The translations under genes and the position numbers were made by a program. Positions 6,131 to 33,069 of a DNA stretch of 64,000 bases are shown piece after piece. The notes beneath the pieces are model-generated. The model made no database searches and was not told the origin of the DNA. It saw nothing but the letters and a program-made list of their open reading frames with translations. Every line of letters starts with the position of its first letter. The stretch's first letter is position 1. The stretch is from an uncultured Solirubrobacterales bacterium (GTDB lineage: Bacteria > Actinomycetota > Thermoleophilia > Solirubrobacterales > Solirubrobacteraceae). Where the stretch lies: the NCBI GenBank assembly GCA_963742275.1, contig CAVUKU010000003.1, positions 111,866 to 175,865 on the forward strand. The letters run 5' to 3'.

Positions 6131-6146
6131 TGGGTTTGTGCCCTCG

Positions 6147-11613: not shown

Positions 11614-11662
11614 GCTTGCGACTATCGGCTCGTCATTCGTGGTGGCCCAAACCGAGTCCTTG

Positions 11663-12367: not shown

Positions 12368-12483
12368 TGCTTGGTCGCCAGCAAGCATAGCTAAACGGCT
12401 TATGATGCCTCCAAATACGCTAGGGCTACGGAGAGGGCGCCGGGGCGATCGCACACCCGATCCCACGTTGGGGATTGATATTT

Positions 12484-14300
12484 ATGAACCCATACACCAC
12501 AACAGCGCTATTCACCGGCTCGAGCACTGTGGATATCTGGTTCGTGGATCTTTACCCCCCAGCACCCTTGCGAGACCCAATGCTCGCTTTCCTCTCCGCA
12601 GACGAGAGGAACCACGCCACGATGTTCCGATCACATCATGCGCGCAGCACATTCCAGATCGCACGGGCGACCTTGCGCCTTCACCTGGCGCGCTATACGG
12701 GAGCCGCCCCACACGAACTCATCATTGAGGTCAGCAGGCAAGGCAAGCCGTTTCTCGCCGGACAAGAGGCCCATGCCCCGCTTCGTTTTAACGTTTCTCA
12801 TTCTCACGGCTACGCGCTCATGTGTTTTTCAAGGAGCCACGAAGTAGGGATCGATATCGAGAAGATCAGGCTGCTTCCCGATGCTCGCCTGGTTGCTGAG
12901 CAGCACTTTTCACCTGCCGAGCTCAAGAGCGTCTTTGCAAAGAGGATAAAGGCGCATCCACGCGCTTTCTTGCGTGCTGGACTCGAAAGGAGGCACTCGT
13001 AAAGGGGCTAGGTGACGTGCCCAGGGACGTTCAGAACGCGGTGTAGGTAGGTCCGGGCCTACCGAGAGGCTGTGGGTGTCAAAGCTCACGACCTCAAGGG
13101 AGGCCCGGAATGCCGCACCATAGAGCTCGTATGACCCCGCGTGGGCGGGAGATGGTCGTTCGTCGTGTCGTGGATGACGGGATGTCCTTCGCGCAGGCCG
13201 CGGCGTGGGGGAACGTGTCGAAGTCCACGGTGTGGGAGTGGGTACGCCGCTGGCGGGCGGCGACCCCGGGTGAGCGGGAGTCGCTGGTGTGCCTGGCAGG
13301 AGCGCTCCAGTCGCCCTCACCGGTCTCCCTCCCGGTGCCCTGCTGAGGAGGAGCAGCGGATCTGTGAGCTGCGCCAGCGAACGGGCTGGAGTCCCAGGAC
13401 GATCGCGATGCTGATTGGGCGCCCTCACTCGACCGTGCACCAGGTGCTGCGACGCGGGGGCTGCTCACGCCGGGAGCCCTCCGAGCGCGCAGCGGTCGTC
13501 CGCTACGAGTGGCCCTGCCCCGGGAACCTGCTGCATATGGACGTCAAGAAGCTCGGGAAGTTCACCGAGCCCGGGCACGCGCTGACGGGTGATCGCACCC
13601 GACGCTCCCCGGCGAGTCGGCTGGGAGTACGTGCACTCGATCGTCGATGACTGCTCACGCCTGGCGTACTCAGAGATCCACGACGACGAGAAGGCCCCGA
13701 CCGTGACTGCGTTCACCTGCCGCGCCCTGGACTGGTTCCTTGGAGCACGGGATCGTCGCTGAGCGGCTGATGACCGACAACGCGTTCGCCTACATCCACA
13801 ACAAGACGCTGCGCGAGCTGCTCTACCGCCGCGCGATCCACCATCTCCGCACCCGGCCCTACACGCCCCGCACCAACGGGAAGGTCGAGCGCTACCAGCA
13901 GACCCTGCAACGCGAGTGGGCCTACGCCCTGCAATACGCCTCAAGCGACGCCCGTCGAGCTTCGCTGCCACACTGAGTCCGCCACTACAACGAGCAGCGC
14001 ACCCACAGCGCCCTCGGCAACCGCCCACCCATCCACCGCGTTCGGGACGTCACCGGGCACAACAGCTAGGTCAAGGCTTGCATATGCCTCTGCGTACATT
14101 TGACGTGACACCCGAGCGCTCCGCCAGCGCCGTCGCCTGGCGTTGCTCCAACTTTAACTCGTTGGTTCACCGCGCAGCTCACTCTGCCTGTGGAGAGACA
14201 CTGTGGTGCTGTCGCGCTATCCGCCATCCAAAGCCTACGTGCTCACCAGCCGCTCTGTCCCACGACAACCGAGTGGGATCCCTTTCTGGCGCATTGCTAT
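12484..14300 (+). pseudogene. Sfp-type 4'-phosphopantetheinyl transferase interrupted by IS481 and frameshifted
   Basis: GKP, FNVSHS and VGIDIE motifs; WTRKEALVKGLG lies in a shifted frame at ~12978; the reading continues after the IS as GQGLHMPLRTFDV; 3' end approximate. Confidence 0.88.
13013..14064 (+). mobile_element. IS481-family insertion sequence (1052 bp) with frameshifted transposase
   Basis: Imperfect terminal IRs TGACGTGCCCAGGGACGT and ACGTCACCGGGCACAACA; 6-bp DR GCTAGG at 13007-13012 and 14065-14070; transposase fragments HMDVKKLG, LMTDN, RPYTPRTNGKVER across several frames. Confidence 0.93.
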
Positions 14301-14308
14301 CTTCAGCA

Positions 14309-14881
14309 TCACTCCTGGGTGTCCGTGTTTGGCGGGGAATCAGAGGAGCTTTTCAGCTCGAGGTAGTGCCCGCATTGCGGACAGGTGATGCCTGTCTTAC
14401 TCGCCTTCGTAGATGGCACGTCCTTCCCCCCGTCTTTCCGCCGCCGAAGCTCAACGCGCAGGCAGCGCACCGAAAGGCGCTCCTGCTCTGCAAGATCAAG
14501 CCAATGCTCCTGTTCCTCCGCGGTAAGTGCCGCCAGCTCCGCGTGATGGCTCCACGACAGCATCTCCCGACGTCGGGAGATCTCGAAGCGGGCTGCTACA
14601 TATGCCATGTTCATCAATGTTTGCCTGTCATAAAGCGTGAGTTTTTCGGCGCGTGCGTACTTTTCACCGAAACGAGCGTTGCCGTAGCGAATCCAGTCCC
14701 CTACCCACCAGCCTGCAGCTCTGCTTTGACTGGCTAGTTGTGCACCGAAGCGAGCCCACGTCTCCAGATCGAGCTCTCCGTTTGGCTCCCAAGCTACACG
14801 CGTAATCCGCGGCGTCGAAACTTGCGTCCGCAGCGGTCTCAGCGCTATCTGTTGTGCCTGAGCAGTGCTCATGCTTGTCAA
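14309..14881 (-). CDS. LmbU/NovE-family cluster-situated transcriptional regulator
   Basis: WWVGDWIRYG...Y..A...T..D.QTL.N.AYVA.RF..SRRR..LSWSHHAELA.L...EQ..WL..A motif series; C-terminal CPQCG. Confidence 0.88.
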   Translation of the reverse strand: MTSMSTAQAQQIALRPLRTQVSTPRITRVAWEPNGELDLETWARFGAQLASQSRAAGWWVGDWIRYGNARFGEKYARAEKLTLYDRQTLMNMAYVAARFEISRRREMLSWSHHAELAALTAEEQEHWLDLAEQERLSVRCLRVELRRRKDGGKDVPSTKASKTGITCPQCGHYLELKSSSDSPPNTDTQE

Positions 14882-15667
14882 CTAGCGATGTCTCATAGAT
14901 CGTGGGCACGCAACCCGCGCTGAGGCAGTTGCGGCTGAACCATCTTGAAAGTGAAATTCAGCTGCAAACTTGAAGCCTCCTACTGGGCACCTGGCTGGTA
15001 CGGCCATCCCTATCGGGTGGTATCCTACCTTCCGTCCTTTCACGCGCCTATAGTATGTCAATCCAAGGGGCCCAAAACTCGTGCGAATATCGACCACGGA
15101 CACATCTGATGCGCCTGGCAAAGAAGGCGTTAGCGGTACAATAGTGTTTAGATGAGCTGATTCGAACGAGCCCGCTCCCTGCAAAAGCAACGCGGGAAAG
15201 ACAAGCTGGGCGGCAACCGGCGTCTCCGCATCGACATAAAACAACATAGCGGTATGGTGATTTACTGCTGGCCCCATGAACATATCGATGCTGACTGGCT
15301 CATGCACGACAACCGGGCCAAACGGCACCTCTGCAGTTGCACTCCCAAAGCCCAGATATGAGTTACTAGAGCAGGCTGCGGGTCCTCGCTGTAACAGGGC
15401 TACAGGATCGCAGATTGTAGTGCCTAGTTCGGTCGTGCCTAGACCCATACCAGGTGGTAGGCTTAGGTCTATATCGGTTACCGGCGACGGCACCAGTGTG
15501 CCAGTTGGGCTGATGTCGAAGTGAACCAAAATCGTCGTGCTCTTACCTAGCTGGTCAGGCGAGAAGGCCACATGAAGCTTCACCGTCTGGGACGCCCCCG
15601 CGACGGCCGGGAACAATCCTGAAAGCACAACAAAAACGATCGTGCTCCATCTTGCTTTGATCATCAT
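14882..15667 (-). CDS. Secreted Cys-containing beta-rich hypothetical protein (paralog of 33854-34621)
   Basis: Signal-peptide-like N-terminus; collinear similarity to 33854-34621. Confidence 0.8.
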   Translation of the reverse strand: MMIKARWSTIVFVVLSGLFPAVAGASQTVKLHVAFSPDQLGKSTTILVHFDISPTGTLVPSPVTDIDLSLPPGMGLGTTELGTTICDPVALLQRGPAACSSNSYLGFGSATAEVPFGPVVVHEPVSIDMFMGPAVNHHTAMLFYVDAETPVAAQLVFPALLLQGAGSFESAHLNTIVPLTPSLPGASDVSVVDIRTSFGPLGLTYYRRVKGRKVGYHPIGMAVPARCPVGGFKFAAEFHFQDGSAATASARVACPRSMRHR

Positions 15668-15689
15668 CAGCCTTAGCAGGGAAAGGACC

Positions 15690-16184
15690 CTAAATTTTGA
15701 TTCTGCCCGTGACAACAGCGGACATAGCATAATTACCTCTCGCTAGGGTGCCGCGTATGTTCCCCGCCGGTCCTGAGACATGCGCATAGCGTCCAGTCCC
15801 GTGAGTGAAGAACAACGACCCGCTAAAGTTCGCACTAGGCCCAGCAACGTAATACGAAACAGTCCCGGCGCCGCTCATCGTGCCGTTACGTGTGCTACAG
15901 GTGTATGCGATTCTTGCCTGCGTGTAGGAGATATTGATCTGTATCGCCAATGAACAGTTGAATGTTCCTGAGCCATGACCACGCTCGTTGAGCACCGTAG
16001 CGCCCCGATGGCTTACCAGGCTGGCATGAATCGATTCGTGCAGCGACAGGCTGCTCGAAGCCGTTGTGCCGCGTCGTGGCACGGATGCGGAGGCAACGCC
16101 AAAAACACCGGCGGCAGACATGGCTAGCACCGATAGCACGGCGACCGGCACGAGGGCACATTTCCAGCGTGGGCAAAAGCTCAT
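15690..16184 (-). CDS. Small secreted beta-barrel-like hypothetical protein (paralog of 34631-35191)
   Basis: Signal peptide; GTGRYAH motif shared with 34631-35191. Confidence 0.75.
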   Translation of the reverse strand: MSFCPRWKCALVPVAVLSVLAMSAAGVFGVASASVPRRGTTASSSLSLHESIHASLVSHRGATVLNERGHGSGTFNCSLAIQINISYTQARIAYTCSTRNGTMSGAGTVSYYVAGPSANFSGSLFFTHGTGRYAHVSGPAGNIRGTLARGNYAMSAVVTGRIKI

Positions 16185-16333
16185 TGGTGCTGCAACCTCC
16201 GATGGTGGGCTCGGGTAATTGGGACTCACGACGGTTGTAAGTTTGAACGGCACCGGAGTCTGCCAGAACGGCGCCCGTGCGTGGCTTACCAATATGCGTA
16301 ATCGCGTTTCGCATAACACGAAACTATGGTCGG

Positions 16334-17593
16334 CTAAACGACGGTCGCCGATGACGGCGTGCGGACAATGCTTGGCGGCTCGGTGCGTTTGGTGCCCGCA
16401 TCCATGTAGCCAAGCTCCTCGAGTCGAAGAGCTATCTCAAGCGCAGTTAGGTCGAGTAGATCGCCAAGGGCCTTCCGGACATCGCCGAGATGGTTTTCGA
16501 CGGTTCGCCGGGTTAGCCCAATAGCCTTTCCCGCTGAGGAGGCGTTTCGGCCGTGCTTAAAGTCGGCGAGTAGTGACTTTCGCGCCGGCAGACCACACCC
16601 GTGCAGGCTGTTGAGCGGTTGGAGGTAGACTGCCCCATATATGCGGATCATCGCGTTGTTTTGCATAGTGGCCACCACCGGCAAGACGTCGGCGCAGCGG
16701 GTGACCTCTTGCGGCTTGTGACGAGCGATGAGCAGTGCCAACTGGGCTTCGTCGTGAGTCTGGCGCCAGCCTTCAAGTCCGTTCCCCGGATCACCGATCG
16801 CAAGCGTGGCGTGTCGACACCCGCTGGTGGAGAGTAAGCACTTGAACTCAGCGACGGACAGCTTTGTCTTGCTACCCAGCCACGCCCACACGGTCTCGTC
16901 ATCGTCACCCGCCACGGACAGTAGCTTCCGTCCGGGAGCAGCCCCCAGGCGCCGAAGGGTCTCGGCGCTCTCCGCTCCGACCGCGATCACCCCGAGATGC
17001 CAACGGGAGCCCACCTCGTAGTTCAGCTCCTTGAGCTCGGCCGGGTCGACGTCTTCGACGATCAGCCGGCGCACGAGCTTGGCGCAGCGGTGTTCCGGCG
17101 AGCAAGCGAGGTGCTCGGACTCTCGCTCGTACTCGTCTTCTACAGAGGCGACTATGTGGTCGAGCAGTGAGCCGTAGTTCTCGCGCAGATGCTCGAGCAC
17201 GGCCTCGTGATCTGCGTAGCCTGTCCGCTCGATCTCCTCGCGGATGAAGTCCATGAACCGCCCGTGCCCGGCCAGATAACGGCGCACCAGCACGCCCGGA
17301 CGCATGCCGATGCGAGCTGCGCGGCGTGCGTGAGCTGCCAGCGCCTGCGGCATCTCTCCCCACTCCCCTCCCCGCTCGATTGCATCCAGGCTGTACTCGA
17401 TGGTCGCCACGATAGCCGCGGCACGACCGCGCTCGTACTCGGCGTCGTGGTGGCCCAGCGGGTCGGTCTCCGCAGCAGGGATGCTGGCGTGGATCTCCTC
17501 GGCCATTTCCAGACCGCGTGATCGCAGCCCGGCGACCACGACGGCATAGACCTCCTCGGGCGACGCTGGGCAGTTCAGTACGCTTTCGCTCAT
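16334..17593 (-). CDS. PucR/CdaR-like transcriptional regulator
   Basis: AHARRAARIG, GLEGWRQTHDEAQ, C-terminal HTH NASSAGKAIGLTRRTVENHL. Confidence 0.82.
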   Translation of the reverse strand: MSESVLNCPASPEEVYAVVVAGLRSRGLEMAEEIHASIPAAETDPLGHHDAEYERGRAAAIVATIEYSLDAIERGGEWGEMPQALAAHARRAARIGMRPGVLVRRYLAGHGRFMDFIREEIERTGYADHEAVLEHLRENYGSLLDHIVASVEDEYERESEHLACSPEHRCAKLVRRLIVEDVDPAELKELNYEVGSRWHLGVIAVGAESAETLRRLGAAPGRKLLSVAGDDDETVWAWLGSKTKLSVAEFKCLLSTSGCRHATLAIGDPGNGLEGWRQTHDEAQLALLIARHKPQEVTRCADVLPVVATMQNNAMIRIYGAVYLQPLNSLHGCGLPARKSLLADFKHGRNASSAGKAIGLTRRTVENHLGDVRKALGDLLDLTALEIALRLEELGYMDAGTKRTEPPSIVRTPSSATVV

Positions 17594-17808
17594 CGGCTAC
17601 CGATGCTTTGCAGGCTTGGGAAGGCGCCAGGACATCAAGAGGCCGGCCCGGTCGTTAGGGCAAGCACCAGACGCACGATCGCACTCTGGAAGTGGTCCGC
17701 ATATGTCTATCAGGCAGAGACTGCAACGTGGCCGACCAATGTGGACGGTGCGACCGAACACATTGATCGGTTGTACTCTTCGGCATCAGTTGTACAGAAA
17801 GGCCAGTC

Positions 17809-19014
17809 CTACTCTTTGGACGATGAGTCCTCGGAGGCGAGATCCGCAAGCCGGAGCGCGACGTCGATCTCAGCGAGGCAGGCGCAGAGTGGCCGATCAA
17901 GCAGCTCCTCTACCAAGCGTAGGCGATTCCCAACTGTCTGCCGGCGGACCTTCGCTACATGAGCCGCAGAGGTGGAGTTGCATCCAGCGTCGATATAAGC
18001 ACGTAGCGTCTCAAGCAAATCCGCACTATCCGCGCGCCCCCGAATCAGCGCCAAGAACTCCCCGAGCCATGTTGCGAGCGTTTCATTTTCCAACGCAGCC
18101 ACCAGCAGCGGGCTTTCCGCATACCGCACAACTTGCTCCGGTCTGCGTAGCGCTCGCAACTGCGCTCCCCTGGCTTCGCGGTGCGTCTGACGCCATCCGT
18201 CGAGCCCCCATCCCGGCCCGCCGATAGCGAGTATCTCGCCCGTAGTCCCGTTGGGTGTCAGCACGCGCTCAATGTCCACGATCTTGAGCCGCTGAGATGC
18301 GCCGAACCAGGCCCACACGGTGCCGTCGTCGCACTGCGCCAGCAGGAGTTCGCAACGACAGTCGGCCTTCACGCGTCGGAAGGCGCCGTGAATGTCGGTC
18401 CCCGTGGCGATCACGCCGAAATGCCAGGAAGTGTCGAGCTCGTATTCCAACTCGGCCAGTTCCGCAAACTCGACCAGCTCCTTGGCGAGTAGCCTCCTCA
18501 CAATCTCAGTTCGACGCTGCTCGGGCGTACACACCAGTTGCTCGCGCTCGTCGTTGTACTCGCTTTCGATCGCCGCCGTCACACGTTCTAGCAACATCTC
18601 CAGAATCCTGCGGAGATTGTTGAGTGCAGACCCGTTGCTTGACAAGCCGATGTTCTCTGCCTCCTCCACGACAAACTCGCTGAGCCGGCGGTGCCCGGCG
18701 ACGTAGCGGCGGAGCACCGTGCCCAGGCTTACGCCCGCGCGTGCAGCGCGCCGTGCTTGAGCCGCCGCCTCTTGCGGGATCGGCACTGTCCATCCCAACC
18801 CGTGTTCGAGGGCTTCGAAGCAGGAGTCGAGAATCGCCGTCACCGCCGGCAACACTCCCACTTGATATGTCGGGTTTTGACCGCCTGCCGAGTCAGGCAC
18901 AGCCTCCTGGATGCGGGCATAGATCGTGTGGGCGATCTCCGAGTGACGTGCTCGCAATCGCCCGACGATCTCAGGTGCGGAGTCCTCGACGTGATCTTGC
19001 GGTACCGCGCTCAT
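17809..19014 (-). CDS. PucR/CdaR-like transcriptional regulator (tandem paralog)
   Basis: AQARRAARAG, GLDGWRQTHREA, HTH LETLRAYIDAGCNSTSAA..RQTVGNRL. Confidence 0.85.
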   Translation of the reverse strand: MSAVPQDHVEDSAPEIVGRLRARHSEIAHTIYARIQEAVPDSAGGQNPTYQVGVLPAVTAILDSCFEALEHGLGWTVPIPQEAAAQARRAARAGVSLGTVLRRYVAGHRRLSEFVVEEAENIGLSSNGSALNNLRRILEMLLERVTAAIESEYNDEREQLVCTPEQRRTEIVRRLLAKELVEFAELAELEYELDTSWHFGVIATGTDIHGAFRRVKADCRCELLLAQCDDGTVWAWFGASQRLKIVDIERVLTPNGTTGEILAIGGPGWGLDGWRQTHREARGAQLRALRRPEQVVRYAESPLLVAALENETLATWLGEFLALIRGRADSADLLETLRAYIDAGCNSTSAAHVAKVRRQTVGNRLRLVEELLDRPLCACLAEIDVALRLADLASEDSSSKE

Positions 19015-19167
19015 CGTCGGTCTCGACCACCACGAGCCGGAGGCTCACTCGACCAGGTTGGACACATCAAAATCGGACCAGCCAACTACGATGAATAAAA
19101 TGGACAGCCAGAGCGGTGCCCCGCCTCGCCATCCATCGACCAGAATGCCCTCGGAAGCGTCCTTTAC

Positions 19168-19188
19168 GGGGGGGGGGGGGGGGGGGGG
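19168..19188 (+). repeat. G21 homopolymer tract in a divergent intergenic region
   Basis: 21 consecutive G read directly. Confidence 0.9.
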
Positions 19189-19347
19189 TAGAAGCGTTCG
19201 GCTTCGCGGAAGCGGCCAGGATCGAGATCGTGGAGATGCTGCTGCTTGTCGTCCGACCATGGGCGCCGGGTACCCTAATGGATAGCTGAACTGGCCCGTC
19301 GCGCAAAACATTGGGTAGACGCTCAACCTGGTCAGCTGGCATTAGCC

Positions 19348-19373
19348 GAGAACTCTACCGGGAACTAGTTCTC
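19348..19373. promoter_or_regulatory. Putative operator (GAGAACT-N12-AGTTCTC) just upstream of the XRE gene
   Basis: Perfect 7-bp inverted repeat ending 5 bp before ATG 19379. Confidence 0.4.
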
Positions 19374-19378
19374 TGGTC

Positions 19379-19684
19379 ATGGCAGTCTCCGCCACGGAGG
19401 GTTCAGGCGTGCGGATCAGTCGAAGCCCCCAGGTTGCCCTTGGCCGAGCAGAAATCGGGCTCACGCAGGAGTCCCTGGCCGACGCCGCCGATCTCGACGC
19501 CACCTCCATCCGCGGCCTTGAGCGTGGCGTCGCCAATCCGACCTGGGACGTAGCCGACCGCATTGCACGAGCTCTGGGGCTCGCTCTGCATGAGCTCGCC
19601 CGCAGGGCCGACGACCTGGAGACCAGAGACCGCCGACCGACCAACCGGCCGCTGGCACCTGAGCATCCCCGGCAGAAGCGCTAA
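19379..19684 (+). CDS. XRE-family HTH regulator
   Basis: LTQESLADAADLDATSIRGLERGVANPTW..RIARALG. Confidence 0.8.
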   Translation: MAVSATEGSGVRISRSPQVALGRAEIGLTQESLADAADLDATSIRGLERGVANPTWDVADRIARALGLALHELARRADDLETRDRRPTNRPLAPEHPRQKR

Positions 19685-19893
19685 CGCGCTGTCGGTCAAG
19701 AAGCTGACCGGCCCCACCGGCGCGCGGTCGTGGACCGAGCGTAGCGCTGAGGGCGTAGCTGTTCCCGCCTCGCCAACCAAGCTGAGACCATGCCCCGGAC
19801 CCGCCACTGGGCCATCCATGCACAGCTGGTCGGTCAGCGCATTCGTGGCGCTCGCGAAGACCCACTGCGAGGGCTGCCCCTAGGCTGCCCATT

Positions 19894-20252
19894 CGAGCGT
19901 TTTTTGAGGGCACCTGAGAGCACCTGACGTTCCCGAAAACCGCTTAGTTCGGCGGAGAGCAGCGTATTCCAACGCACTGCAAAGCCGTCTACACCGGTTC
20001 GATTCCGGTCGTCGCCTTGAAAAAGCCCTGCAAATCGGCACTTTTTGCCTTGGTCGCTGCGCACACGACCATCTACGCTCCCAGGACTCTCCCAAAAGGC
20101 CGTCTACACGGCTCGATTTTTGGGCCCATTTGCAGGGGATTTGTTCGGCACCCAACTCGTCGATTCCAGTGCCGCGCCAAAAAGCCGTTGACGGTGGCCA
20201 TTAGGCAAAGGATCATCGGCCGGAGGTAGTCGGCGAGCGCTTGCTTGTCGTC
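19894..20252 (+). repeat. att junction copy 1 (~360-bp imperfect direct repeat) containing a tRNA-Cys 3' fragment at 19977-20017
   Basis: CTGCAAAGCCGTCTACACCGGTTCGATTCCGGTCGTCGCCT = anticodon loop (GCA), T-arm, acceptor 3' strand and U discriminator; flanks align with 24816-25172. Confidence 0.9.
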
Positions 20253-20556
20253 CCAGCAAGCGCGTTCGGTGCTGCGGGTTGCGCTTTCGCAGACTGCATG
20301 CAAGCAGGAGTCAGGAATCGTGATCGCCGCCGCCTGATTCCAGACCGCCGGCTACGAGAAACCCAGGTCAGATCAGTTGCTGGTCGAGGACCCGCCGGCC
20401 GATCCAGGCCTACGTGCGCCCGGAGACGCTGCTCACTGATGGCGACGTTCGAGCCGCTCGACCGGATCGGCGAGATGAATCCGCCGCAACTCGCGTCGGA
20501 AGTCGCGTCCGCACCGGCCGGTATCGTGTGCTGCCCCAAATCTGGGAGCGTCGAGA

Positions 20557-22788
20557 ATGGACTTCAACACGATAGATCCCCAGGCAGTCCATCTCCTGGC
20601 TCAGTACCGGCCGTTTGAGGATGGGTCGGCGGATATGCACGCCGCTCACGACGACCTTGTCGCTGCCGCCATTCAAACCAACGGGGGGCAGTTCGCGAAC
20701 CTAGAGGAATGCCGCAAGTTCGTCGAGCAACGCTTCTGCATCGAGCTAGAGCTGCAGGAGGTGCGCGAGGCCCGCGACAGGCTTATAGCTGAGGGGCGAG
20801 CGGTCAAGGTCGGCGGAGGGATCGAGCTAACGGAGGACGCCGGGGCGTCGCTGGACAGCGAGCGGATCGCGTGGGAAGAGGCTCGCGGAACCGCATTCGT
20901 CGAGTGGGAGGTCGCGATCCGCCGCTCTTTCCCGACGATGTCTGACGAGCACATCTCGACACTTAAGGACCAAGTTGGCCCGTGGCTCGACCGAGTGGTC
21001 GCCACGCACGGGGCTGAGACAAGTCTTCTGCTTTACCCGGCTCACCCGAAGGCTCCTGCCTTGATCGCGGCCATCGAAAAGATCGATCTTGGATTTCTGC
21101 CGCGATGCGACGAGGATCTGGAACGTCAGAGGGCGGCCGCGTTCAGGCTGCTAGTGCGTAACCCCACCGAGGCGCAGAGTGAGTATCTCGGGCGCCTACT
21201 CAATACCGGATTCTACCTCACCGTGATGACACTGGACCCCCGAGTGGAAGAACTAGCGCGTGCAGAGGCGAGCAAGGTCACACTTTACCTGGATACCAAC
21301 TTCTTGTACTCGGTCTTGGGCGTCGGGAGCGCGAAGGAGGCATTTGCTGCGCGACGGTTCCTCGACCTCTGCAGAGAGCTTGGCGTGACACTCCGCATCT
21401 CGCCCTGGACAGCAGACGAGCTGAGGACGAGCATCAGAAGCAATCGCCAAGACGTAGAACGCTATGCCCAGTCCCGAAAGGTTGCGGCGGTCATGGCCCA
21501 AGTTACCGGGGAGAAGGGCTTCGAGGCTGCCTATTGGCGCACAGCGAGTGAATCCGGCGAGGGGGCCGAGTCATTTTTCGGGAAGTTCGCTCACTTCGAA
21601 CGGTTCTTGGAAGGCCTCGGAATTCAGGAGCATCCCGAGGGGGTGCCTGAGATCGAAGCGGATATTTCCGGGATCCGCGACTACTCGTCTCCACTGGAGG
21701 GGATGTACGGGCCAGGCAGTCGCCCACGTATCGTCATCGAGCACGACGCGAAGATGCGGATGCTCATCGAGCATCTCCGGGGCAAACACAAGCCGCCGGC
21801 GGGGTACACAGACGTTCGCTATTGGTTTGTCACCGAGAGCACGCGACTACCTACCTACGCGCGTCTCGGGATCGGTGGTGGACCGCGAGCGAGCTTCCCA
21901 TTCTGCATCCTCTCATCGACGGAGGCTCAGCTCCTGCGCGCGATGGTGCCGCGAACGTCTGACCTGAACGAGATGGTCGCAGCACTACTCGCCTCCCCAT
22001 TTGTCGGGTATAGATCTGCGCTTGGGGGCGAGGCACAGCTAGCAGCCCTTGAGCGGATCACCCGATCGATCGACTCACTGAAGGACGTGCCGCCCGCCGT
22101 TGCCATCGCGGTCGTGAATGACAAGGCAATGGCGACAAAGATTGGCGAGGAGGCCGATCCGGTCGTCATCCAACAGATGATCGAGGAGGCGATCACAGCT
22201 AAGGCTGCCGAACTCCAAGCCCAGCTTGACTCGGCTGCACAGCGGATCACCGACGCAGAACGTGTTCGCGAGCGGGCCCGAGCCGACAGGCTTGCGGCGG
22301 AGCAGGAGGCAGAGCGCCTGAGGATCGAGCGGGATCACGCCGTTGCTGATGCCCAGCGCAACGTGATCGAACTAGAGGCCGCCCGAGGCAGCCACGACGA
22401 TGAGTCTGAGGCTCTGCGCGAAGAGGTAAAGCAAGTCAAGAAGCGCCTTGATGACACCGAGGCCGAAAGGCGGGCGGATCGCGAAAAGCGCCGTCGTCGA
22501 AGCCGCAACGTCGCGGCGGTTCTCGGTTGTGTGGTGATCGATGGAATTGGTGCTTCGCTCATCGCAACCTCGATGATCTCGGGCGCAGTGGGCGATGTTG
22601 TGACGATCGCCGTCATGGCGGTCGCCATCTATTTCGCTCTGCGCATGATCTCCAAGCGCCTCGCCGTCGAGGTGATCGCGGTTATCGGGGTCGTCTCGGC
22701 GGTCGTGACGGTTGCGAGCCTCCTGGTTGCTTCCGACGGAGGCGCCAAAGCTAAGCCGTCGGCCGTCGAATCGACGGTGGGACACTAG
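20557..22788 (+). CDS. PIN-like domain protein with coiled coil and C-terminal transmembrane helices (putative defence protein)
   Basis: LYLDTNFLYS..., TADEL, IEHDA, YWFVTE acidic PIN pattern; E/R/A-rich coiled coil; three hydrophobic C-terminal segments. Confidence 0.7.
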   Translation: MDFNTIDPQAVHLLAQYRPFEDGSADMHAAHDDLVAAAIQTNGGQFANLEECRKFVEQRFCIELELQEVREARDRLIAEGRAVKVGGGIELTEDAGASLDSERIAWEEARGTAFVEWEVAIRRSFPTMSDEHISTLKDQVGPWLDRVVATHGAETSLLLYPAHPKAPALIAAIEKIDLGFLPRCDEDLERQRAAAFRLLVRNPTEAQSEYLGRLLNTGFYLTVMTLDPRVEELARAEASKVTLYLDTNFLYSVLGVGSAKEAFAARRFLDLCRELGVTLRISPWTADELRTSIRSNRQDVERYAQSRKVAAVMAQVTGEKGFEAAYWRTASESGEGAESFFGKFAHFERFLEGLGIQEHPEGVPEIEADISGIRDYSSPLEGMYGPGSRPRIVIEHDAKMRMLIEHLRGKHKPPAGYTDVRYWFVTESTRLPTYARLGIGGGPRASFPFCILSSTEAQLLRAMVPRTSDLNEMVAALLASPFVGYRSALGGEAQLAALERITRSIDSLKDVPPAVAIAVVNDKAMATKIGEEADPVVIQQMIEEAITAKAAELQAQLDSAAQRITDAERVRERARADRLAAEQEAERLRIERDHAVADAQRNVIELEAARGSHDDESEALREEVKQVKKRLDDTEAERRADREKRRRRSRNVAAVLGCVVIDGIGASLIATSMISGAVGDVVTIAVMAVAIYFALRMISKRLAVEVIAVIGVVSAVVTVASLLVASDGGAKAKPSAVESTVGH

Positions 22789-22887
22789 CCACATCCCGGA
22801 GAAAGTCCGGCCCGAGAGCAAGTCGCCCTGAGAGTCAGGTTCGTGGACTGTCCTGTGTTCGGCGACCTGTCGCCAGCGCAATGCCGC

Positions 22888-23343
22888 TCAGTGCGGCAGA
22901 TAGACAACATCTTGGGGACCGCAGGTGCCCCCGGCCGAGCACGCGTTGTAGTCGGACTCTTCTGTGAAGGGCCCCTTCCAAGTCGTTCCGCCGCCGGTCC
23001 CTGAGACGTAGGCCGGGCGGTAGGGATAGCCGCAGAAGTAGAACCCCATACGACCGCCGCACACCCACCAGCGGCCGTCAATGAGTACCGGCCCGGCGTC
23101 GCCGGTGGCGGCCCCGTCCGCGGTCAGGTTGATGTGCTTGGCGTGTGGGTTGATGGCGCCGGCAAGAATTGTCCGGGCCCGCGCGCATGACATGTGCCAC
23201 GGATAGATCGCGTCCTTGCCGTAAAAGCCTTTGGCCGCGTAGCCGCAGCGCTTGACCGTGACCGTCGTCAGTGCGGACGCTGCGCCTACGCCCATCATCA
23301 GTAACGCGAAAGCGATCAAGATGCACCGCCATCCCCTGAACAT
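22888..23343 (-). CDS. Small secreted Cys-rich hypothetical protein
   Basis: Signal peptide ILIAFALLMMGVGAASA; six Cys in the mature part. Confidence 0.6.
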   Translation of the reverse strand: MFRGWRCILIAFALLMMGVGAASALTTVTVKRCGYAAKGFYGKDAIYPWHMSCARARTILAGAINPHAKHINLTADGAATGDAGPVLIDGRWWVCGGRMGFYFCGYPYRPAYVSGTGGGTTWKGPFTEESDYNACSAGGTCGPQDVVYLPH

Positions 23344-23740
23344 GCGCGCGAGCCTAACACGAATCGCTGTCGTTCGACAGCGGCTTCGGCGCGCGACCGC
23401 ATCGGCGACGTCTCGATGGTGCCGATCACCGGCACCACATGAGCGCCCCACCGCGTTTTCACTCGCCCTGCGCGCCCGAAGGTCGACTGCCGCGATACTC
23501 GCGGAAACACCGAAGCAGGACCCATCCGGGTCGGCACACGCAGCCTTGAGTTTCGCCACAAGCAGGGGACTCGGGACAACCGCATTCCTGCCGCAAGCGG
23601 GAGCCCAACACCGAGACGATGACTGTGCCGCCCTGGACGAACACCAGCAGTCTGTCTGGGTCCTCGTTCGCTCCCGCTCCTTGGCAGGGCAGACGAGCGA
23701 TGGACGTCTGACGGCACCGGTGGGTCAGCGCAGGTGGCAG

Positions 23741-24322
23741 TCAGAGGCTCAGCGAGCGGCGTGCCTTGTCAGCCAGAGAGGGCGCGCCAGCGCGCTCGAT
23801 CGCGGCGAGTAGATCCTCAATGGGTCTTCCTCCTGCCCAGCTGCCTGCCTGCAACTCCAAAATGTCGAGTATGCCCCGAGCGTCGGCGTCAAATGCAGGA
23901 GCGAGGAACTCGTCAGGAGTGAGAACTTCGACGCCAAAACGTCGCAGGCCCTCGCGCAAGTAGCCACGGTCGTGCGTGAAGAGATAGTGAGCACCCGAGG
24001 CTACCGCCAGAGCGCACACGTGGTGATCTGCAGGATCGGTGGTCAGGCTGCCGAGATCGACGGCCGACGGCGCCTCCTCGAGGCTGGTGTTCCCGCTGGG
24101 GAATCCCTGCGGAAGGTAGTCGACCCATCGCTGGGCCACCTCGACGGCCAATCCCTTCTTCTCGATCAGTGATCTCCTCGCCTCGCCCAGCAGCTCCTCG
24201 CTCCAGACAAGATCCAGCAGACGCAGTTCGCTCGCGATGCGTCCCAGCAACTCGTGAAGTACTCGCGAGTAGATGATGTCGCTATCGAGGACCGCACGTG
24301 GTGGCCTGTTCGGCTTACTCAA
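23741..24322 (-). CDS. PIN-domain toxin (PIN_3/VapC-like)
   Basis: AVLDSDIIY, WSEELLGE, DPADHHVCALAV, YLFTHD, VLTPDEFL; TTG start overlaps the upstream stop. Confidence 0.85.
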   Translation of the reverse strand: MSKPNRPPRAVLDSDIIYSRVLHELLGRIASELRLLDLVWSEELLGEARRSLIEKKGLAVEVAQRWVDYLPQGFPSGNTSLEEAPSAVDLGSLTTDPADHHVCALAVASGAHYLFTHDRGYLREGLRRFGVEVLTPDEFLAPAFDADARGILDILELQAGSWAGGRPIEDLLAAIERAGAPSLADKARRSLSL

Positions 24323-24659
24323 GCGGCGCGCCCATCGCGTCGAGGTCGCGCGACCATTTGTCGGTGAGCCCGCGGGCTCGGTCACGGCGCTCCTCGAAGG
24401 CGAGCAACGAGGCGAACGGAATCTTCCAGTAGCTCGACCCGGGTAGCTTCTGTGCCTGAAGCTCGCCGTAGCCGATGAGTCGAACGACGTGCTGGCGGGA
24501 GAACCCAAGCCGATCCGCCGCCTGCTGGGGCGAGAGCAGCTCCTGCTCCTCGGCCACCGTCACCGCGATCCGCTTTCCCTCGCCGAGCAATCTGTCGATC
24601 TCGTCGGCCACAAGCGCCACCTGATCACTAGCAGCCGGATCAAGGTGCAGAGTCTTCAT
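24315..24659 (-). CDS. Excisionase-like HTH (HTH_17) protein, likely antitoxin
   Basis: ELLSPQQAADRLGFSRQHVVRLI..GEL; directly upstream of the PIN gene. Confidence 0.82.
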   Translation of the reverse strand: MKTLHLDPAASDQVALVADEIDRLLGEGKRIAVTVAEEQELLSPQQAADRLGFSRQHVVRLIGYGELQAQKLPGSSYWKIPFASLLAFEERRDRARGLTDKWSRDLDAMGAPLE

Positions 24660-24815
24660 CTCCCGCCGCACAATAGCACAACCTGTCCTACCTGCTCATG
24701 CCAACCTGATGACCGAGGAGCAACGGAACAAGATCTGGGGCACAAACGCACGCGCCTCGTGTTGGTATCCGACCCAGCTCCCGTGTCCCGCCACTCTCCC
24801 ATAACTCTCCCAGCA

Positions 24816-25172
24816 CGAGCGTTTTTTGAGGGCACCTGAGAGCGCCTGAGGTCCCCGAGAACCGCTCAGGTAAGCGGAGAGCACCGTTTTTCCGACACCC
24901 TGCAAAGCCGTCTACACCGGTTCGATTCCGGTCGTCGCCTTGAAAACTCCCTGCAAATCGGCACCTTTTGGCCAGTCCACTGCGCAGACGATCGTCTACT
25001 CTCCCGGAACTCTCCCAAAAAGCCGTCTACACGGCTCGATTTTTGTGCCCATTTGCAGGGGATTTGTCTGGCGCCCGACTCATCGATTCCGGTGCTGGGC
25101 CAAAAGCCGTTGACGGTTGCCGTTGGCAAAGGGATCGTCGGCCGACGTCGGCGGGCGCGCTTGCTTGTCGTC
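24816..25172 (+). repeat. att junction copy 2 containing a tRNA-Cys 3' fragment at 24900-24940
   Basis: Same 41-bp core as copy 1; flanks collinear with 19894-20252; cut on the right by IS1182. Confidence 0.9.
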
Positions 25173-25174
25173 GT

Positions 25175-26840
25175 GGGTGTCGCGCAAACCTCCGGTCTGT
25201 CCGAGCGGTTTTGGACTATTCTGGGTATGCCCTAGAACTTTCTTGAGTGTGATCGTGAGCAGGTGTTTTTGATGCCGCCGGACTCGCGGGATTGGCTGCC
25301 GGAGGGTCATTTGGCGTGGTTCGTGTTGGCGTCGGTTGATGAGATGGATCTCGCGGTGTTCTGTGGCTTCTACCGCCAGGATGGGTGGGGCCGCGCGGCG
25401 TTCGAGCTTTCGATGATGGTGGCACTGCTTTTGTACGCCTATGCGCGGGGTGAGCGATCCTCAAGGGGGATCGAGCGTTGCTGCGTGGAGGACGTCGCCT
25501 ACTGGGTGATCGCTGCTCAGCGGACGCCCGATCACGCGACGATCGCGTGGTTTCGCGTGCGCCACGAGGAAGCCCTCGCGGGCCTGTTCAGCGAGGTGCT
25601 GGGGCTCTGTCGGGAGTCGGGGCTCGTGAAGGTGGGGCTGATCGCGATCGACGGCACGAAGCGGTGCATGCAAACGCCTCGCATCACTCAAACCTCGACT
25701 ACGAGCAGCTCGCCCGCGAGATCCTGAAGGAGGCGGGCGAGGTCGACGCTTGCGAGGATGAGCTCTATGGCGAGGCGCGCGGCGATGAGCTGCCCGAGTA
25801 CCTGAGAACCCACGAGGGCCGACGCGCTGCGCTGCGCGAAGCCAAGGAGAAGCTCGCGCGGGAGCGTGCAGGCATAGAGAACACGAAGGTGAAGGTGCCT
25901 GACACGCAATCGCAGAGTGTGAAGCTCGTACTTGATCCCGAGGTGATCGTCGCCCGGATGCACGGGCGTCAGGGGTGGGTGCGCGAGGCGCGCTACCAGC
26001 TCGATGAGCATCGCCGCTTGGCGGCCGATCCGATCCCGCGCTCGCGCTCGGAGCGCTTGCTTGAGTGCGAGCGTCGCCTACAGGAGAACCTGCGCGTCGA
26101 GCGCGAGGCCAACGAGGCCTACGAGCATCACCGCGCGACTGCCGTGACCAAGGACGGCCGGCGGTTCGGAGCGCGCCCGAACCCTACGTCGCGCCGGAGG
26201 TGCCGCCGGGGAAGATCAACGTGACCGATCTCGATTCACGCAACGTCAAGACGCCGCGCAGCTACACCCAGGGCTACAACGCCCAGGCCGCCGTGAATGA
26301 GCATCAGATCGTCTTGGCGGCTGAGGTCACGCTCACCTCACCAGACTTCGGGCAGCTCGAGCCGATGATCAAGGCCACCCGACGCGAGCTAGAGCAGATC
26401 GGTGTGAGCGAGGCGCCTGGGGTCGCCCTCGCGGACAGCGGCTACTGGCATGAGCAGCAGATGGACCGCGTCGTGAACATCGGCACCCAGGTCTTGATCC
26501 CGCCCGATGCCGGCAAGCACGACACACCGCGCCGCGGCTGGGATGGTGGCCGCTACGCCTTTATGCGCACCGTGCTCGCTGGTGACCACGGCGGCGGGCT
26601 TACCGAAAACGCAAGGCGATGGTCGAGCCCGTTTTCGCTCAAACCAAGCACAACCAGCACATCAACCAGTTCCAACGGCGAGGCAGATCCGCCCACGCTC
26701 GGAATGGCGGCTAATCACCGCGACACACAACCTGCTCAAGCACCACAAGCACCACATGGCCGCCCAGGCCGCCTGAAACGCCACCCGGGCCGCACCGACA
26801 CCCCACCAAGCCCCCAGAACCCGATACCTACAGCCGGACC
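25175..26840 (+). mobile_element. IS1182-family element, transposase pseudogene
   Basis: End GGGTGTCGCGCAAACC; MP*NFLECDREQ (premature TAG), DWLPEGHLAWFV, PDHATI, AIDGT, TDLDSR, QGYNAQ, ADSGY; frameshifts; right boundary approximate. Confidence 0.85.
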
Positions 26841-26844
26841 GAAC

Positions 26845-27281
26845 TCAGGGGGTCAGGCCACGCCGCCCGTCCTTCATCACCCCGCGCGCACGGTAGGCCT
26901 CATAAGCCTCGTTCGCGGCGCACTCGACAGCGAGTTCCTCCTCCAGTCGGCGTTTTGATTGCCGAAAGCGCTCAGGGCGCGAACGCGGGATTGGCTCGGC
27001 CTCGGCGGCACGTTTCTCATCGAAGCGACGTTTAGCCTCACGCAACCAGCCCCGCCGGCCCTGCTCGGTGGAAAGCTCCGGCGGCAGCTCCTCGCCGCGC
27101 TTGCCCCCATACTGCTCGTCCTCGAGCCGGTCAGCACAAACCACGCCAAGTGATCCTCCGGAAGCCACTCCCTCAGACTCGCCGGCAACAACAACTCCTG
27201 CTCACGGTCACAAGCAATGAAGCTCTGGGGCATACCAACATAGTCTTCAGCCCGCCGGACAGCACCCTTTACGCAACAGCC
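26845..27281 (-). mobile_element. IS1182-family remnant, internally deleted
   Basis: End GGCTGTTGCGTAAAGG; MPQSFIACDREQELLLP..WLPEDHLAWFVL joined directly to the EDEQYG..GEELP segment. Confidence 0.8.
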
Positions 27282-27446
27282 ACGAACGAGGGCAGCAGCA
27301 CGGCGCGGGGTGTGCTCGTGACTGAGTTGCCAGCGAAGCAGTCACCTGGGCCGAAGGAACTTCGGCAGCATTGACAAGTGGTTATCAAAATGATAGGTCG
27401 ATAGCCGACCGGCTGGCCGGTACCACAGGCGCAGGAGGGATCCCCC

Positions 27447-28857: not shown

Positions 28858-30093
28858 CTATATCCACATGGCCCGGATGGTCCCGAAGTCCGGGTCGCCC
28901 TCGGAGCGCTCCCAGCCTACGGCGTCGAGGCTGCTGAGGTCGATGAACACGTTAGTGAGATCGGCATCCTCGGCGTTGGCGCCCGTCACCACGTCCCACC
29001 GTGGCGCTGAGGCAGCCCGGTCGGTCATTAGCACGCCCAGGTTCAGACGCTCGACCGGGGCGATCGTAGTCATCATGGGACCCTCGATAAGGAATGGAGT
29101 GGCCTTGGTGAAGCGATCCGCAAGGGCGGGAATCTGTGTGACGTCGGGGCCACCTTTGGCAAGCAGCGACGCGTAGAGCAACGGTGGACGCTGAACGACC
29201 AATCGCTGGGTCAGATTGTCAAGGCTCGCGTGGTCGAGCTCGTGGCTCGCGGTCTGTGGCAGATAGAGCGAGACGTTGATCGGATGGTCGTAGACGGTGG
29301 CGGATTGCGATTTTTCGAGCGCTGGCGCGAGCGGGATGGAGACGAAGCGCCGATACCACTCGTCAGCCGCCACGTCGGGGAAGATCTCGCTCGGCAATGC
29401 GGTCACCTCCGCGCAGCCGTTGAGTGGCCTGCCGATCCGCAGCGGTGTCCCCGGCACATAGAAGGAGGCGAGGTCACCGTGATCGACGTTCCGGTCAGCG
29501 TAGACGAGGCATCCCTGCTGAACCGTGATCCGGGGACTGGTCGAGAAGGGCTCCGGGGCCTGCGCCAAGTCAAAGACCCTGCCATGTTCGAGGTCGCCCG
29601 ACGTCGAGCCCACCAGGGCGTCGATGACGTAGAGAACGGCCGGTTGCTCGTAGGGCACGTGCTTGACGAGATGGTGGACGCCGATGACGTCAGTATGTGG
29701 GTTGAACGGGCCCGGCGGACCGTAGGTCGCTTCCGCGGTCTCATACTCCACTGTGTGCAGCGCAAACCACGCGGCGATGCCCGGCGAGTGCGTGACATCG
29801 AGAAACTCGGTCCCGGGGCCGTAGTGCTGCTTGATCGCCCGCAACCACAACATCACGAGGTCGAGGTCCTGCGTCGAGGCGTCCGGCGCGAGCGCGTTGG
29901 CAAGCTGATACGAGTAGAACCGCCACACCTGCTCGGCGTCGCGGATGCCCCGCAGGGCCGTTGGCTTCATCGCCCCGAAGTCACGGTTCTGGCCTCGGAA
30001 CACCCTGATGTGACCGGGTGCCGGAGGCGGCAGACCCTCCAGCGTGGCCAAAAGCTCACCGTAGCTCGTAATCGCAGTCACTCGCGCTCCCAT
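28858..30093 (-). CDS. FRG-domain protein
   Basis: VFRGQ...MKPTALR, QHYGPGTEFLDVTHSPGIAAWFA, PRITVQQG. Confidence 0.85.
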   Translation of the reverse strand: MGARVTAITSYGELLATLEGLPPPAPGHIRVFRGQNRDFGAMKPTALRGIRDAEQVWRFYSYQLANALAPDASTQDLDLVMLWLRAIKQHYGPGTEFLDVTHSPGIAAWFALHTVEYETAEATYGPPGPFNPHTDVIGVHHLVKHVPYEQPAVLYVIDALVGSTSGDLEHGRVFDLAQAPEPFSTSPRITVQQGCLVYADRNVDHGDLASFYVPGTPLRIGRPLNGCAEVTALPSEIFPDVAADEWYRRFVSIPLAPALEKSQSATVYDHPINVSLYLPQTASHELDHASLDNLTQRLVVQRPPLLYASLLAKGGPDVTQIPALADRFTKATPFLIEGPMMTTIAPVERLNLGVLMTDRAASAPRWDVVTGANAEDADLTNVFIDLSSLDAVGWERSEGDPDFGTIRAMWI

Positions 30094-30179: not shown

Positions 30180-31020
30180 ACTCGGTCGCGAGTGCTTGGC
30201 GCATCGCCGTGTATCTTCCGCCTTGCCATCCCGGCCGCGGGCCTGGCGCTTGCCAGCGTCCGGCGGGATGAGAACCTGCACGTGCTCGTTGGCCACGACA
30301 TAGTCCATCTGCTGCTCATTCCAGTGCCGCTATCGGCAACCGCGGCCCCTAGTGTCTCTGTAACACCAATCGCCTGGAGTTCCCTCTTGGTCGCCTTCAC
30401 CATCGGCTCGAGGTGACCGAAGTCTGGTGAGCTCGCGCTCACCTTGTCCGCGAGCACGATCTGCTCCTCGGTCACGACTGCCTGGACGTTGTAGCCCTGG
30501 GTGTAGCTGCGCGGAGTCTTCACATTCCGCGAGTCCAGGTCGGTCGTGTTGATCTTCCCGCCGGGATATCGGGTGGCCATGTGGCTTCGGCGGACGACTG
30601 AGTCGCCGGTCTTGCGTGTCGCGTCCGTGCGCGCAGTAATGCTCATACGCCTCGTTCGCCGCATGCTCGACTTCGAGGTCTCCCACCATCCGGCGCTCCG
30701 CCTCCAACAACCGCTGCGCACGCGAACGGACGATCAGCTTCGCTTCCCGGCGGCGGTACTCATCGAGCTGGTGGCGAGCCTCATCAGCTAGCCCTCGCGG
30801 CCCTGAGTGCGGGCCACGATGACATCCGAGTCAAGCTCGATCTTCGGCTTGGTCACCCCTACCGACGCCAACACAAACCACGCCAAATGACCCTCCGGCA
30901 GCCAATCCCGCGGGTCCGGCGGCATCAAAACACCTGCTCACGATCACACGCCAAGAAGTTCATAGCCACACCCAAGTCTCTAAAACGACCCCGGACAGAC
31001 CCCGGTTTACGCGACACCCC
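30180..31020 (-). mobile_element. IS1182-family remnant, inverted relative to the 25175 copy
   Basis: End GGGTGTCGCGTAAACC at ~31019; KINTTDLDSRNVKTPRSYTQGYNVQ; internal deletion and frameshifts. Confidence 0.82.
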
Positions 31021-32942: not shown

Positions 32943-33069
32943 GGAGCCCCACCGCACGGTTGGTGCTCGGCTTCGTTGCTCTTTTGCTCGTAGGCTGGGT
33001 AGTCGACGTGCTCCTCGGCACGGGTTGGACGGCGTTCGTGATGCGCGGTGTACGGGAGGCTGCGGCTCA

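Follow-up and report, generated by a model that had tools for sequence, protein, structure and literature searches.

A probable tandem accretion array of integrative elements at a tRNA-Cys gene in an uncultured Solirubrobacterales bacterium

Described accretion systems and the present locus

According to the accretion model of integrative elements, as outlined in a part of PMC5704250 that cites Pavlovic 2004 and Bellanger 2011, an element decays while keeping its attL and attR sites, and a new element then integrates beside it. Cis-mobilizable elements (CIMEs) are represented by the relatives of ICESt1/ICESt3 in Streptococcus thermophilus and by the composite islands at the tRNA-Lys gene of S. 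agalactiae (PMC5704250). In this work we have analyzed a stretch of 64,000 nucleotides (the window, C3:111866-175865) of a metagenome-assembled genome (MAG) from an uncultured soil bacterium of the Solirubrobacterales (assembly G000, 3.69 Mb in 4 contigs, 86.6% complete). Here two 3′ halves of a tRNA-Cys gene bound a 4.9-kb unit (element 2) that follows a genomic island (GI-1) with a tyrosine integrase, which we have named Int1. We read the locus, with a probability of roughly 0.78, as a tandem accretion array of tRNA-Cys-specific integrative elements, three of which are stacked, the middle one being a CIME-like passenger. This architecture, site-specific accretion with a CIME-type passenger, is of an already described and rather common kind.

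Like the CIMEs (PMC5704250), element 2 has att sites related to those of the neighboring integrase-bearing element (a P′ arm and a P arm, with a core at each end) and no integration or transfer genes of its own; the tandem lies at the 3′ end of a tRNA gene, has a chimeric internal att site and belongs to a family in which a deletion derivative with an integrase stump is found (see below). It differs from them in its host, an uncultured lineage of Thermoleophilia, in its integrase-bearing partner, which has no conjugation genes, so that the island is not an integrative and conjugative element (ICE), and in the arm octamer of the passenger, which is not that of the resident integrase island; cis-mobilization would here be predicted from the sequence. 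The ssrA islands of Dehalococcoides (PMC3146451) are also tandem islands, all placed after the same small-RNA gene, whose 3′ end is repeated directly at the end of each island, with the integration module beside attL and extra conservation around the repeats, and 15 of them, devoid of an integration module, have been read as possible cis-mobilizable elements (PMC3146451). There, however, the target is the tmRNA gene, the enzyme a serine recombinase and the repeat 20 bp long, whereas our locus has tRNA-Cys, a tyrosine recombinase, a 41-nt core and long arms.

Another actinobacterial tandem of an integrase-less and an integrase-bearing module, with an internal att site and biosynthetic cargo, is found in Streptomyces scabiei (TR1, a CIME with the thaxtomin cluster, and TR2, an ICE; PMC8369830), although in that case the cluster sits on the integrase-less module, the target is aviX1 and mobilization was shown experimentally, while here a nonribosomal peptide synthetase (NRPS) cluster is carried by the integrase-bearing island. 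Islands of the Islander type (PMC4383910) share with ours an intact tDNA plus a displaced 3′ fragment, a tyrosine integrase and identity that begins at the anticodon loop. An anticodon-centered attP is the commonest class among them (2083 of 3919 islands) and 125 tandem arrays have been reported (PMC4383910), but these tandems require an integrase for each member, and units 2 and 3 of our array have none. We found no paper on Solirubrobacterales islands among the top-ranked results of a loose literature search, and the array appears to lie in a lineage without earlier description of such structures.

Cores, arms and hybrid junctions

The array is composed of the following features, given in positions of the window:

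1-19871, no strand: right-hand 19.9 kb of GI-1 (the whole island, ~32.0 kb, occupies G000:C3:99813-131841, its left end lying outside the window)
19872-19976, + strand: P arm of GI-1, with a GGCTGCCC pair at 19872-19890 followed by the inner 83-nt block found family-wide
19977-20017, + strand: core A, a tRNA-Cys 3′ half matching exactly the intact tRNA and core B
20018-20253, + strand: P′ arm of element 2, from an alignment of 14 P′ arms (11 genomes) and a promoter/terminator scan
20248-23640, no strand: 3.4-kb cargo module with a 743-aa gene (20557-22788, +) and a 223-aa open reading frame (ORF; 22888-23559, -)
23741-24671, - strand: HTH_17 excisionase-family gene (24315-24671) and RSP_2648-family PIN gene (maximal ORF 23741-24508), from Pfam and NCBIfam, adjoining the P arm
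24793-24899, + strand: P arm of element 2; ACTCTCCC stands twice in tandem at 24793-24811
24900-24940, + strand: core B, the second 41-nt tRNA-Cys 3′ half, matching exactly the intact tRNA and core A
24941-25170, + strand: P′ arm of element 3, with a ACTCTCCC pair at 24998-25016; identity 84–88% to its counterparts in element 2 and in the G009 element
25171-27285, no strand: degenerate insertion sequence (IS) of the IS1182 family, from a genome self-BLAST, with ~155-nt inverted ends, abutting the end of the P′ arm

Repeat search and pairwise alignment delimited two direct repeats of ~365 bp each (19894-20253 and 24816-25172), 84–87% identical and offset by 4922–4923 bp. Inside each lies the 41-nt core, 100% identical between the two, which covers tRNA-Cys(GCA) from CTGCAAA, its anticodon loop, to the discriminator base, the T arm included. 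With up to 3 mismatches allowed, a pattern search of the whole genome gave exactly three copies of the core in the assembly, all on the + strand of C3, the third of them within the intact tRNA-Cys gene that ARAGORN places at G000:C3:99742-99813 (+), 32,070 bp ahead of core A and 12 kb outside the left end of the window; an intact tDNA is accompanied by exact 3′ fragments in direct orientation at 19977 and 24900. ARAGORN and Rfam gave no match on the window itself, as expected, because only half-tRNA genes are present there. CTGCAAA is bordered by imperfect inverted repeats in the tRNA copy and in the junction copies alike, and the similarity around the cores extends ~83 nt leftward (~105 nt when the octamer pair is counted, see below) and ~235 nt rightward. 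The original prediction, made from the window, had described the two identical halves correctly in coordinates and spacing, with identity beginning at the anticodon loop, and had placed an intact tRNA-Cys to the left on the same strand, which is where it lies; the search of the contig that it proposed returned the three + strand copies and no more.

A tandem pair of octamers is found on every element, ~57–72 nt right of its left core and ~105–125 nt left of its right core. GI-1 has GGCTGCCC twice, beside the integrase gene ~72 nt right of the intact tRNA and again at 19872-19890; element 2 has a ACGCTCCC/ACTCTCCC pair at 20075-20093 and ACTCTCCC twice at 24793-24811; and in element 3 ACTCTCCC stands twice at 24998-25016. 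These are the only five places of the 3.69-Mb assembly with such pairs, all on the + strand, and the GGCTGCCC pair occurs at just two of them. Each element has matching pairs at its two ends, and the type of pair changes at the junctions, in this genome as well as in the relatives G009, G097 and others (in G009, for example, the first element is bounded by GGCTCCCC and the second by ACTCTCCC). Since the element-specific pairs switch at the junctions and are absent elsewhere in the genome, junctions A and B are hybrid attP-like sites, in which the core joins the P arm of the element on its left to the P′ arm of the element on its right. Their two-armed, attP-like character had been proposed from the window, and the octamers now tie each arm to a different element. 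Pairs of the ACTCTCCC type are also seen on small elements of G097, G096, G058, G088, G050, G080, G041, G122, and G136, and across 17 Int1-family loci both octamers of the P′ arm vary jointly (GGCTCCCC, GGCTGCCC, GGCGCCCC, GGGCTCCCC, and ACTCTCCCC), the GGCTCCCC and ACTCTCCCC types having the hexamer CTCCCC in common. We regard the octamer pairs as putative arm-type sites to which the integrase would bind.

The arms have further features in common. Int1-bearing and integrase-less elements alike have the inner 83-nt block of the P arm and, in the P′ arm, its first ~35 nt, and the 14 aligned P′ arms from 11 genomes show conserved blocks alternating with variable spacers. Across species the median identity of the arms is 73–79%, versus 53–57% in the DNA just outside and 41% in a shuffled control, a conservation that fits functional constraint. 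The P′ arm of element 2 contains the CCTGCAAAT motif and ends in TGCTTGTCGTCC, while a palindrome, AGACGATCGTCT, is present in copy B and in most relatives but degenerate in copy A. A stretch at 20098-20113 and 25021-25036, resembling part of the tRNA-Cys sequence, was at first taken for a decayed tRNA remnant (“pseudo-core”) and is also recognized in the scan as a hairpin with a T-run. About 90 nt past it, a promoter-like TTGACG box at 20188 (region 20188-20216) faces the cargo. The hairpin with its T-run and the TTGAC(G/A) box have the look of a terminator with an outward promoter behind it, and most P′ arms of the genus conserve both.

Two similar 365-bp direct repeats 4.9 kb apart could also come from local duplication of one attR region, or from unequal crossing-over within it. 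We hold this origin to be extremely improbable, given that the flanks are 84–87% identical versus 100% in the core, that the left arms carry different octamer pairs, each fitting a different element, and that the hybrid-junction layout recurs in independent genomes. Moreover, the identity to the junction of G009 (88% for B and 84% for A, versus 86% between A and B) is closer than a recent duplication predicts.

Under the accretion reading, an Int1-family tyrosine integrase would recombine the attP of an element (the 41-nt core between a ~105-nt P arm and a P′ arm of 170–235 nt) with the 3′ half of tRNA-Cys, strand exchange presumably taking place in or beside CTGCAAA, with the 7-nt anticodon loop as the most likely overlap region. 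The incoming element would bring its own tRNA 3′ half, restoring the tRNA gene and recreating the target, and later arrivals would enter at the intact tRNA, with older residents pushed outward. The present order is tRNA-Cys (attL), GI-1, junction A or P(GI-1)-core-P′(element 2), element 2, junction B or P(element 2)-core-P′(element 3), element 3 and the IS1182-family cut. Element 2 would be mobile only with an Int1-family integrase coming from another element; recombination of core A with core B would free a circle of 4923 bp, and that of attL with core B would free GI-1 together with element 2.

Int1, the integrase-less element 2 and the right end of the array

The genes of GI-1 have a G+C content at third codon positions (GC3) of 0.63–0.76, versus 0.81–0.90 in the flanking core genes, and the cargo includes an NRPS/hydrazine cluster. 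The integrase ORF (C3:99982-101526, -) ends 170 nt downstream of the intact tRNA-Cys, left of the window, where the original prediction had expected the integrase. It matches the Pfam family Phage_integrase at 2e-23 (a six-frame search puts PF00589 at C3:100090-100596 with 83–86 bits), and the alignment shows its R, H-x-x-R and Y boxes. The ORF was over-called at 514 aa; with the start at MQAHK, on which 17 homologues agree, the protein has 400 aa. Int1 is 23–27% identical to the nearest phage integrases, and its best relative among PDB sequences is a XerC-like protein (4e-11), with IntI4 reaching only 9.5e-5 across ~50 residues. All its homologues found in public genomes belong to uncultured Solirubrobacterales or Solirubrobacteraceae MAGs, and the tRNA-Cys core adjoins the gene in all but 2 of 19. 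The N-terminal 48 residues are only 67% identical to those of the homologues, versus 83–87% for the remainder. An integrase gene located inside its element and beside an att site is found in GI-1 only, not in elements 2 and 3.

Together with its tRNA-proximal flank (C3:99716-101536), Int1 is 97.8% identical at the nucleotide level to its counterpart in G167 (OY970282.1), whereas the other genes shared by the two genomes are ~80–88% identical. This difference suggests that the integrase module moved between species recently, alone or within an island that was remodelled; the island cargo differs between the two genomes, and G167 has no attR.

The same target is found on a viral contig, L056 (IMGVR_UViG_3300036835_000635), where an attP at 326-366 (-) has the identical 41-nt tRNA-Cys core and paired GTGTCCC repeats stand in both arms. 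The integrase adjoining this attP shares only 32% identity with Int1, so that tRNA-Cys is also the target of a second integrase lineage, unrelated to the first.

Element 2 contains at least four ORFs on both strands and is a mosaic of three parts, namely the arms, 84–88% identical to those of other species, the HTH_17/PIN pair and the 3.4-kb module. No recombinase appeared in it by any of the approaches used. In element 2 the six-frame search of the genome detected neither PF00589 nor PF00239, tblastn with four integrases (Int1 and three XerC-like recombinases of relatives) was negative, and the Pfam, NCBIfam and PADLOC scans of its ORFs matched only HTH_17 and PIN; these results uphold the earlier observation that no integrase lies between the cores. 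Nor did the XerC-like recombinases of G097 and G045, used as tblastn queries, reveal relics of a second integrase. In the six-frame search, Int1 is the only tyrosine recombinase between C3:100596 and C3:204087.

The HTH_17/PIN pair gave Pfam matches to HTH_17 (3e-8) and PIN_3 (2e-5) and an NCBIfam match to NF046100 (1e-14), and the HTH_17 gene scored 29.6 bits against TIGR01764, versus a cut-off of 28.8. Most simply, this would be a toxin-antitoxin-like pair. It is also found next to the tRNA in G022 (73% and 62% amino acid identity) and, linked to a ACTCTCCC-type P arm, core and flank, in the metagenome contigs L073/L074 (93% and 83%).

The 3.4-kb module is 96.6% identical at the nucleotide level to segments of two other species (G047:C4 and G121:C266), where it stands in a context free of att arms, and because of this identity in a different context we consider it to have moved recently and to be a recent acquisition of element 2. 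Directly behind the last base of the P′ arm the shared segment sets in; TCGTCC and GGACGA form its short inverted ends, and we saw no duplication of the target. We read its 743-aa protein, from a structural model, as a probable winged helix followed by a PIN-like domain, a coiled coil and C-terminal helices. The model has a long coiled coil and C-terminal helices and only weak VapC-like and winged-helix fold matches, a Foldseek search with the whole protein returned no match at E ≤ 0.001, only weak local ones, and a DTN motif is invariant across 30 homologues. One homologue, 90% identical, has surroundings like those of a defence island, with integrase, HigBA-like, reverse-transcriptase and RES genes.

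It could be argued that element 2 is autonomous, one of its proteins being an unrecognized recombinase that acts on the repeats, as neither the 743-aa nor the 223-aa protein received a family assignment above threshold and the module has evidently traveled. This we judge very improbable. The copies of the module in G047 and G121 have neither att arm nor tRNA core, and for this reason its movement does not appear to use these sites; the 743-aa family has the PIN-type DTN motif, with the weak VapC-like and winged-helix matches just mentioned and no recombinase fold; and other small units with the same arms carry wholly different genes.

At the right end, only the P′ arm of element 3, ending at 25170, can be assigned with confidence. 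The IS that cuts the element at the end of this arm, as had been anticipated, matches NCBIfam transpos_IS1182 partially and below the cut-off (3e-16); it is multi-copy in the relative G019, and a partial inverted copy of the same family lies at 30226-31019. No terminal attR was found, as no further core (with up to 3 mismatches), left-arm block or octamer pair exists anywhere in the assembly. The chromosomal flank of tRNA-Cys, as defined by G009, G011 and G167, resumes only at C3:184482, 47.7 kb right of core B, where no att remnant was found, and the variable region behind tRNA-Cys extends over 84.7 kb. About 1.25 kb of the flank is missing at this point, and a 414–440-bp stretch of it has a 78–79% match at C3:532047-532460; the distal attR and ~1.25 kb of chromosomal flank are lost. 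Genes to the right of the IS lie elsewhere in relatives, among them a terpenoid operon and 31462-33591 (DAGK and PAP2), which is 93% identical to a distant locus of G011. Because these core-like genes occupy unrelated loci in relatives, the right part of the array has been rearranged, and the two inverted IS1182-family copies may have mediated this. Between them lies a gene for an FRG-domain protein (28858-30093, -) that matches the PADLOC candidate system PDC-S15 (2e-11).

On the other side of the array, the interval from tRNA-Cys to a divergent tRNA-Val(GAC) is conserved in the closest relatives, and the DNA left of tRNA-Val (L004:1-6300, equal to G000:C3:92000-98300) is not. On its far side, the tRNA pair may border another variable region.

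Relatives, competing readings and meaning of the array

The relatives provide both an unoccupied site and parallel arrays. In G011 tRNA-Cys is directly followed by the chromosomal flank, which is also found after the island in G167. G009 has, in this order, tRNA-Cys, an Int1 homologue (75% identical in amino acids) with ~12 kb of cargo, a two-armed junction, a second unit of 6.3 kb without an Int1 homologue, attR and the flank. This attR consists of left arm and core only, and together with its flank it aligns with the tRNA and flank of G011 from the first base of the core (83% over 1.25 kb). We had considered that the right arm of the junctions might be chromosomal flank (B′), an idea that we rejected; because the true attR of G009 has no right arm and its flank matches the empty site of G011, the ~235-nt right arm belongs to the element and not to the chromosome. 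Cassette content at this locus, whose comparison among relatives the original prediction had called for, does vary, with one relative (G011) empty, and its view that at least three elements are stacked at tRNA-Cys agrees with the succession of the intact tRNA with GI-1, the 4.9-kb element 2 and the remnant of element 3.

We also surveyed 151 genomes of the genus with a 386-nt probe over junction A, counting by eye among the matches listed (two unpublished genomes, G057 and G166, contribute tRNA-core matches only, and no specific claim rests on them). Sites of the attR type, with left arm and core, number ~31; two-armed junctions occur in 11 genomes, 12 in total; and in 10 genomes apart from G000 a ACTCTCCC-type P′ arm stands directly after the intact tRNA. 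Lone units of 2.8 kb (G096), 4.0 kb (G058) and 3.8 kb (G088) sit at the tRNA without an Int1 homologue on the fetched locus. AbiEi/AbiEii genes stand beside the P arm in the units of G096 and G058 and in the second unit of G009, with AbiEii 79–85% identical in amino acids. Arrays with two integrase-bearing units or with mixed units were seen in G171, G172, G168 and G169. Finally, three JGI metagenome contigs (L070/L071/L076) have a 2.3-kb unit between tRNA-Cys and a second core, with both arms of the GGCTCCCC type, an integrase stump of 136 residues (261-396) and a gene that also occurs, at 97.7% identity, in the first element of G009. The unit is a clear deletion derivative and illustrates how CIME-type passengers form within the Int1-element family. 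Free circular forms were also sought among metagenome contigs, but none of the seven that matched a left-arm-plus-core pattern had a terminal overlap.

Recurrence of the layout bears as well on a possible assembly artefact, a tandem array simulated by wrongly joined repeats. Such an error is conceivable in a MAG of 4 contigs and 86.6% completeness, but the repeats differ by 13–16% and could hardly be collapsed or confused, contig C3 is 762 kb long, and the same layout is present in several independent long-read MAGs, including closed chromosomes. We give this explanation next to no weight.

The diversity of units raises the question of integrons, in which one integrase gene likewise heads a directional array with a repeated recombination site and a cargo that varies between relatives. 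Integron attC sites are imperfect palindromes of 60–140 nt, and IntI is a tyrosine recombinase with an IntI-specific insertion. An integron-like platform would imply that a fixed integrase beside the tRNA captures and shuffles integrase-less cassettes bounded by the 380-nt repeat. It would account for the integrase-less units of 2.8–6.3 kb with conserved arms and differing cargo at tRNA-Cys in many species of the genus, for the sharp border between arm and cargo (TGCTTGTCGTCC followed by unrelated sequence in at least five genomes) and for the conserved outward TTGAC box of the P′ arm. We nevertheless find it improbable. The integrase travels with a mobile island, with different cargo in G167 and G009, and in G172 the Int-bearing element is the second of the array; NCBIfam integron-integrase models gave 34.8 and 18.6 bits, versus cut-offs of 265 and 435; the repeats are ~380 nt of lambda-type arm sites plus a tRNA core and not attC-type palindromes; the arrays have at most three units among the matches listed; the units are multi-gene, on both strands, as in element 2; and the lone units of G096, G058 and G088 have no Int1-family integrase on the fetched locus. 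Neither an IntI-type integrase beside an attI/Pc platform nor attC-bounded, mostly promoterless single-gene cassettes were found here, and the integrase is part of the first, mobile unit, so that the label of an integron-like cargo array, given in the original prediction, is not supported.

A related, more tentative reading, which we think possible though unlikely, takes the ACTCTCCC-type units as a genus-wide set of integrase-less cassettes (2.8–6.3 kb) bounded by att sites, whose arms would be kept by selection through repeated excision and re-insertion in trans by Int1-family integrases of incoming islands, the P′ arm end and the TTGAC box serving as a platform for cargo exchange and expression. 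The cargo of such cassettes may be mostly toxin-antitoxin, Abi and other defence-type genes.

Several points weigh against the accretion array with a CIME-like passenger. The arms of Int1's own island bear GGCTGCCC and those of element 2 bear ACTCTCCC. Element 2 has no integrase remnant, and an origin by decay is suggested from relatives only, such as the L070/L071/L076 stump. The shared AbiEii of G009, G096 and G058 fits old vertical inheritance as well as mobility. The N-terminal domain of the integrase does not co-vary cleanly with the octamer, as in L044 (CAWBLR010000003.1, 3331-4513), the sole Int1 homologue (83% identical) whose P′ arm bears ACTCTCCCC repeats, which has an N-terminus of the GGCTCCCC group and is frameshifted near residue 48, a frameshift that could be a sequencing error or mark a pseudogene. 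All the genomes compared are MAGs, and any mobility of the array today is read from the geometry of its sequence. The original prediction had presented the middle unit as a non-autonomous cassette mobilized in trans; the missing recombinase agrees with it, and mobilization in trans we consider no more than plausible. The octamers of the two elements differ (GGCTGCCC versus ACTCTCCC).

The array reveals no new kind of system. If the tentative reading of genus-wide cassettes were true, the ACTCTCCC-type units would be an analogue of the integron cassette system with lambda-type att sites, anchored at a tRNA gene. For the organism, the analysis places the NRPS/hydrazine cluster on a defined, apparently recently transferable island of 32 kb with a named integrase and mapped att sites, and explains the small gene block beside GI-1 as a passenger unit. 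The stacked elements offer a natural test of how arm-site specificity limits cross-mobilization between neighbors, and the integrase, core and arm sites for tRNA-Cys described here could seed an integration vector for Solirubrobacterales, a group without genetic tools.

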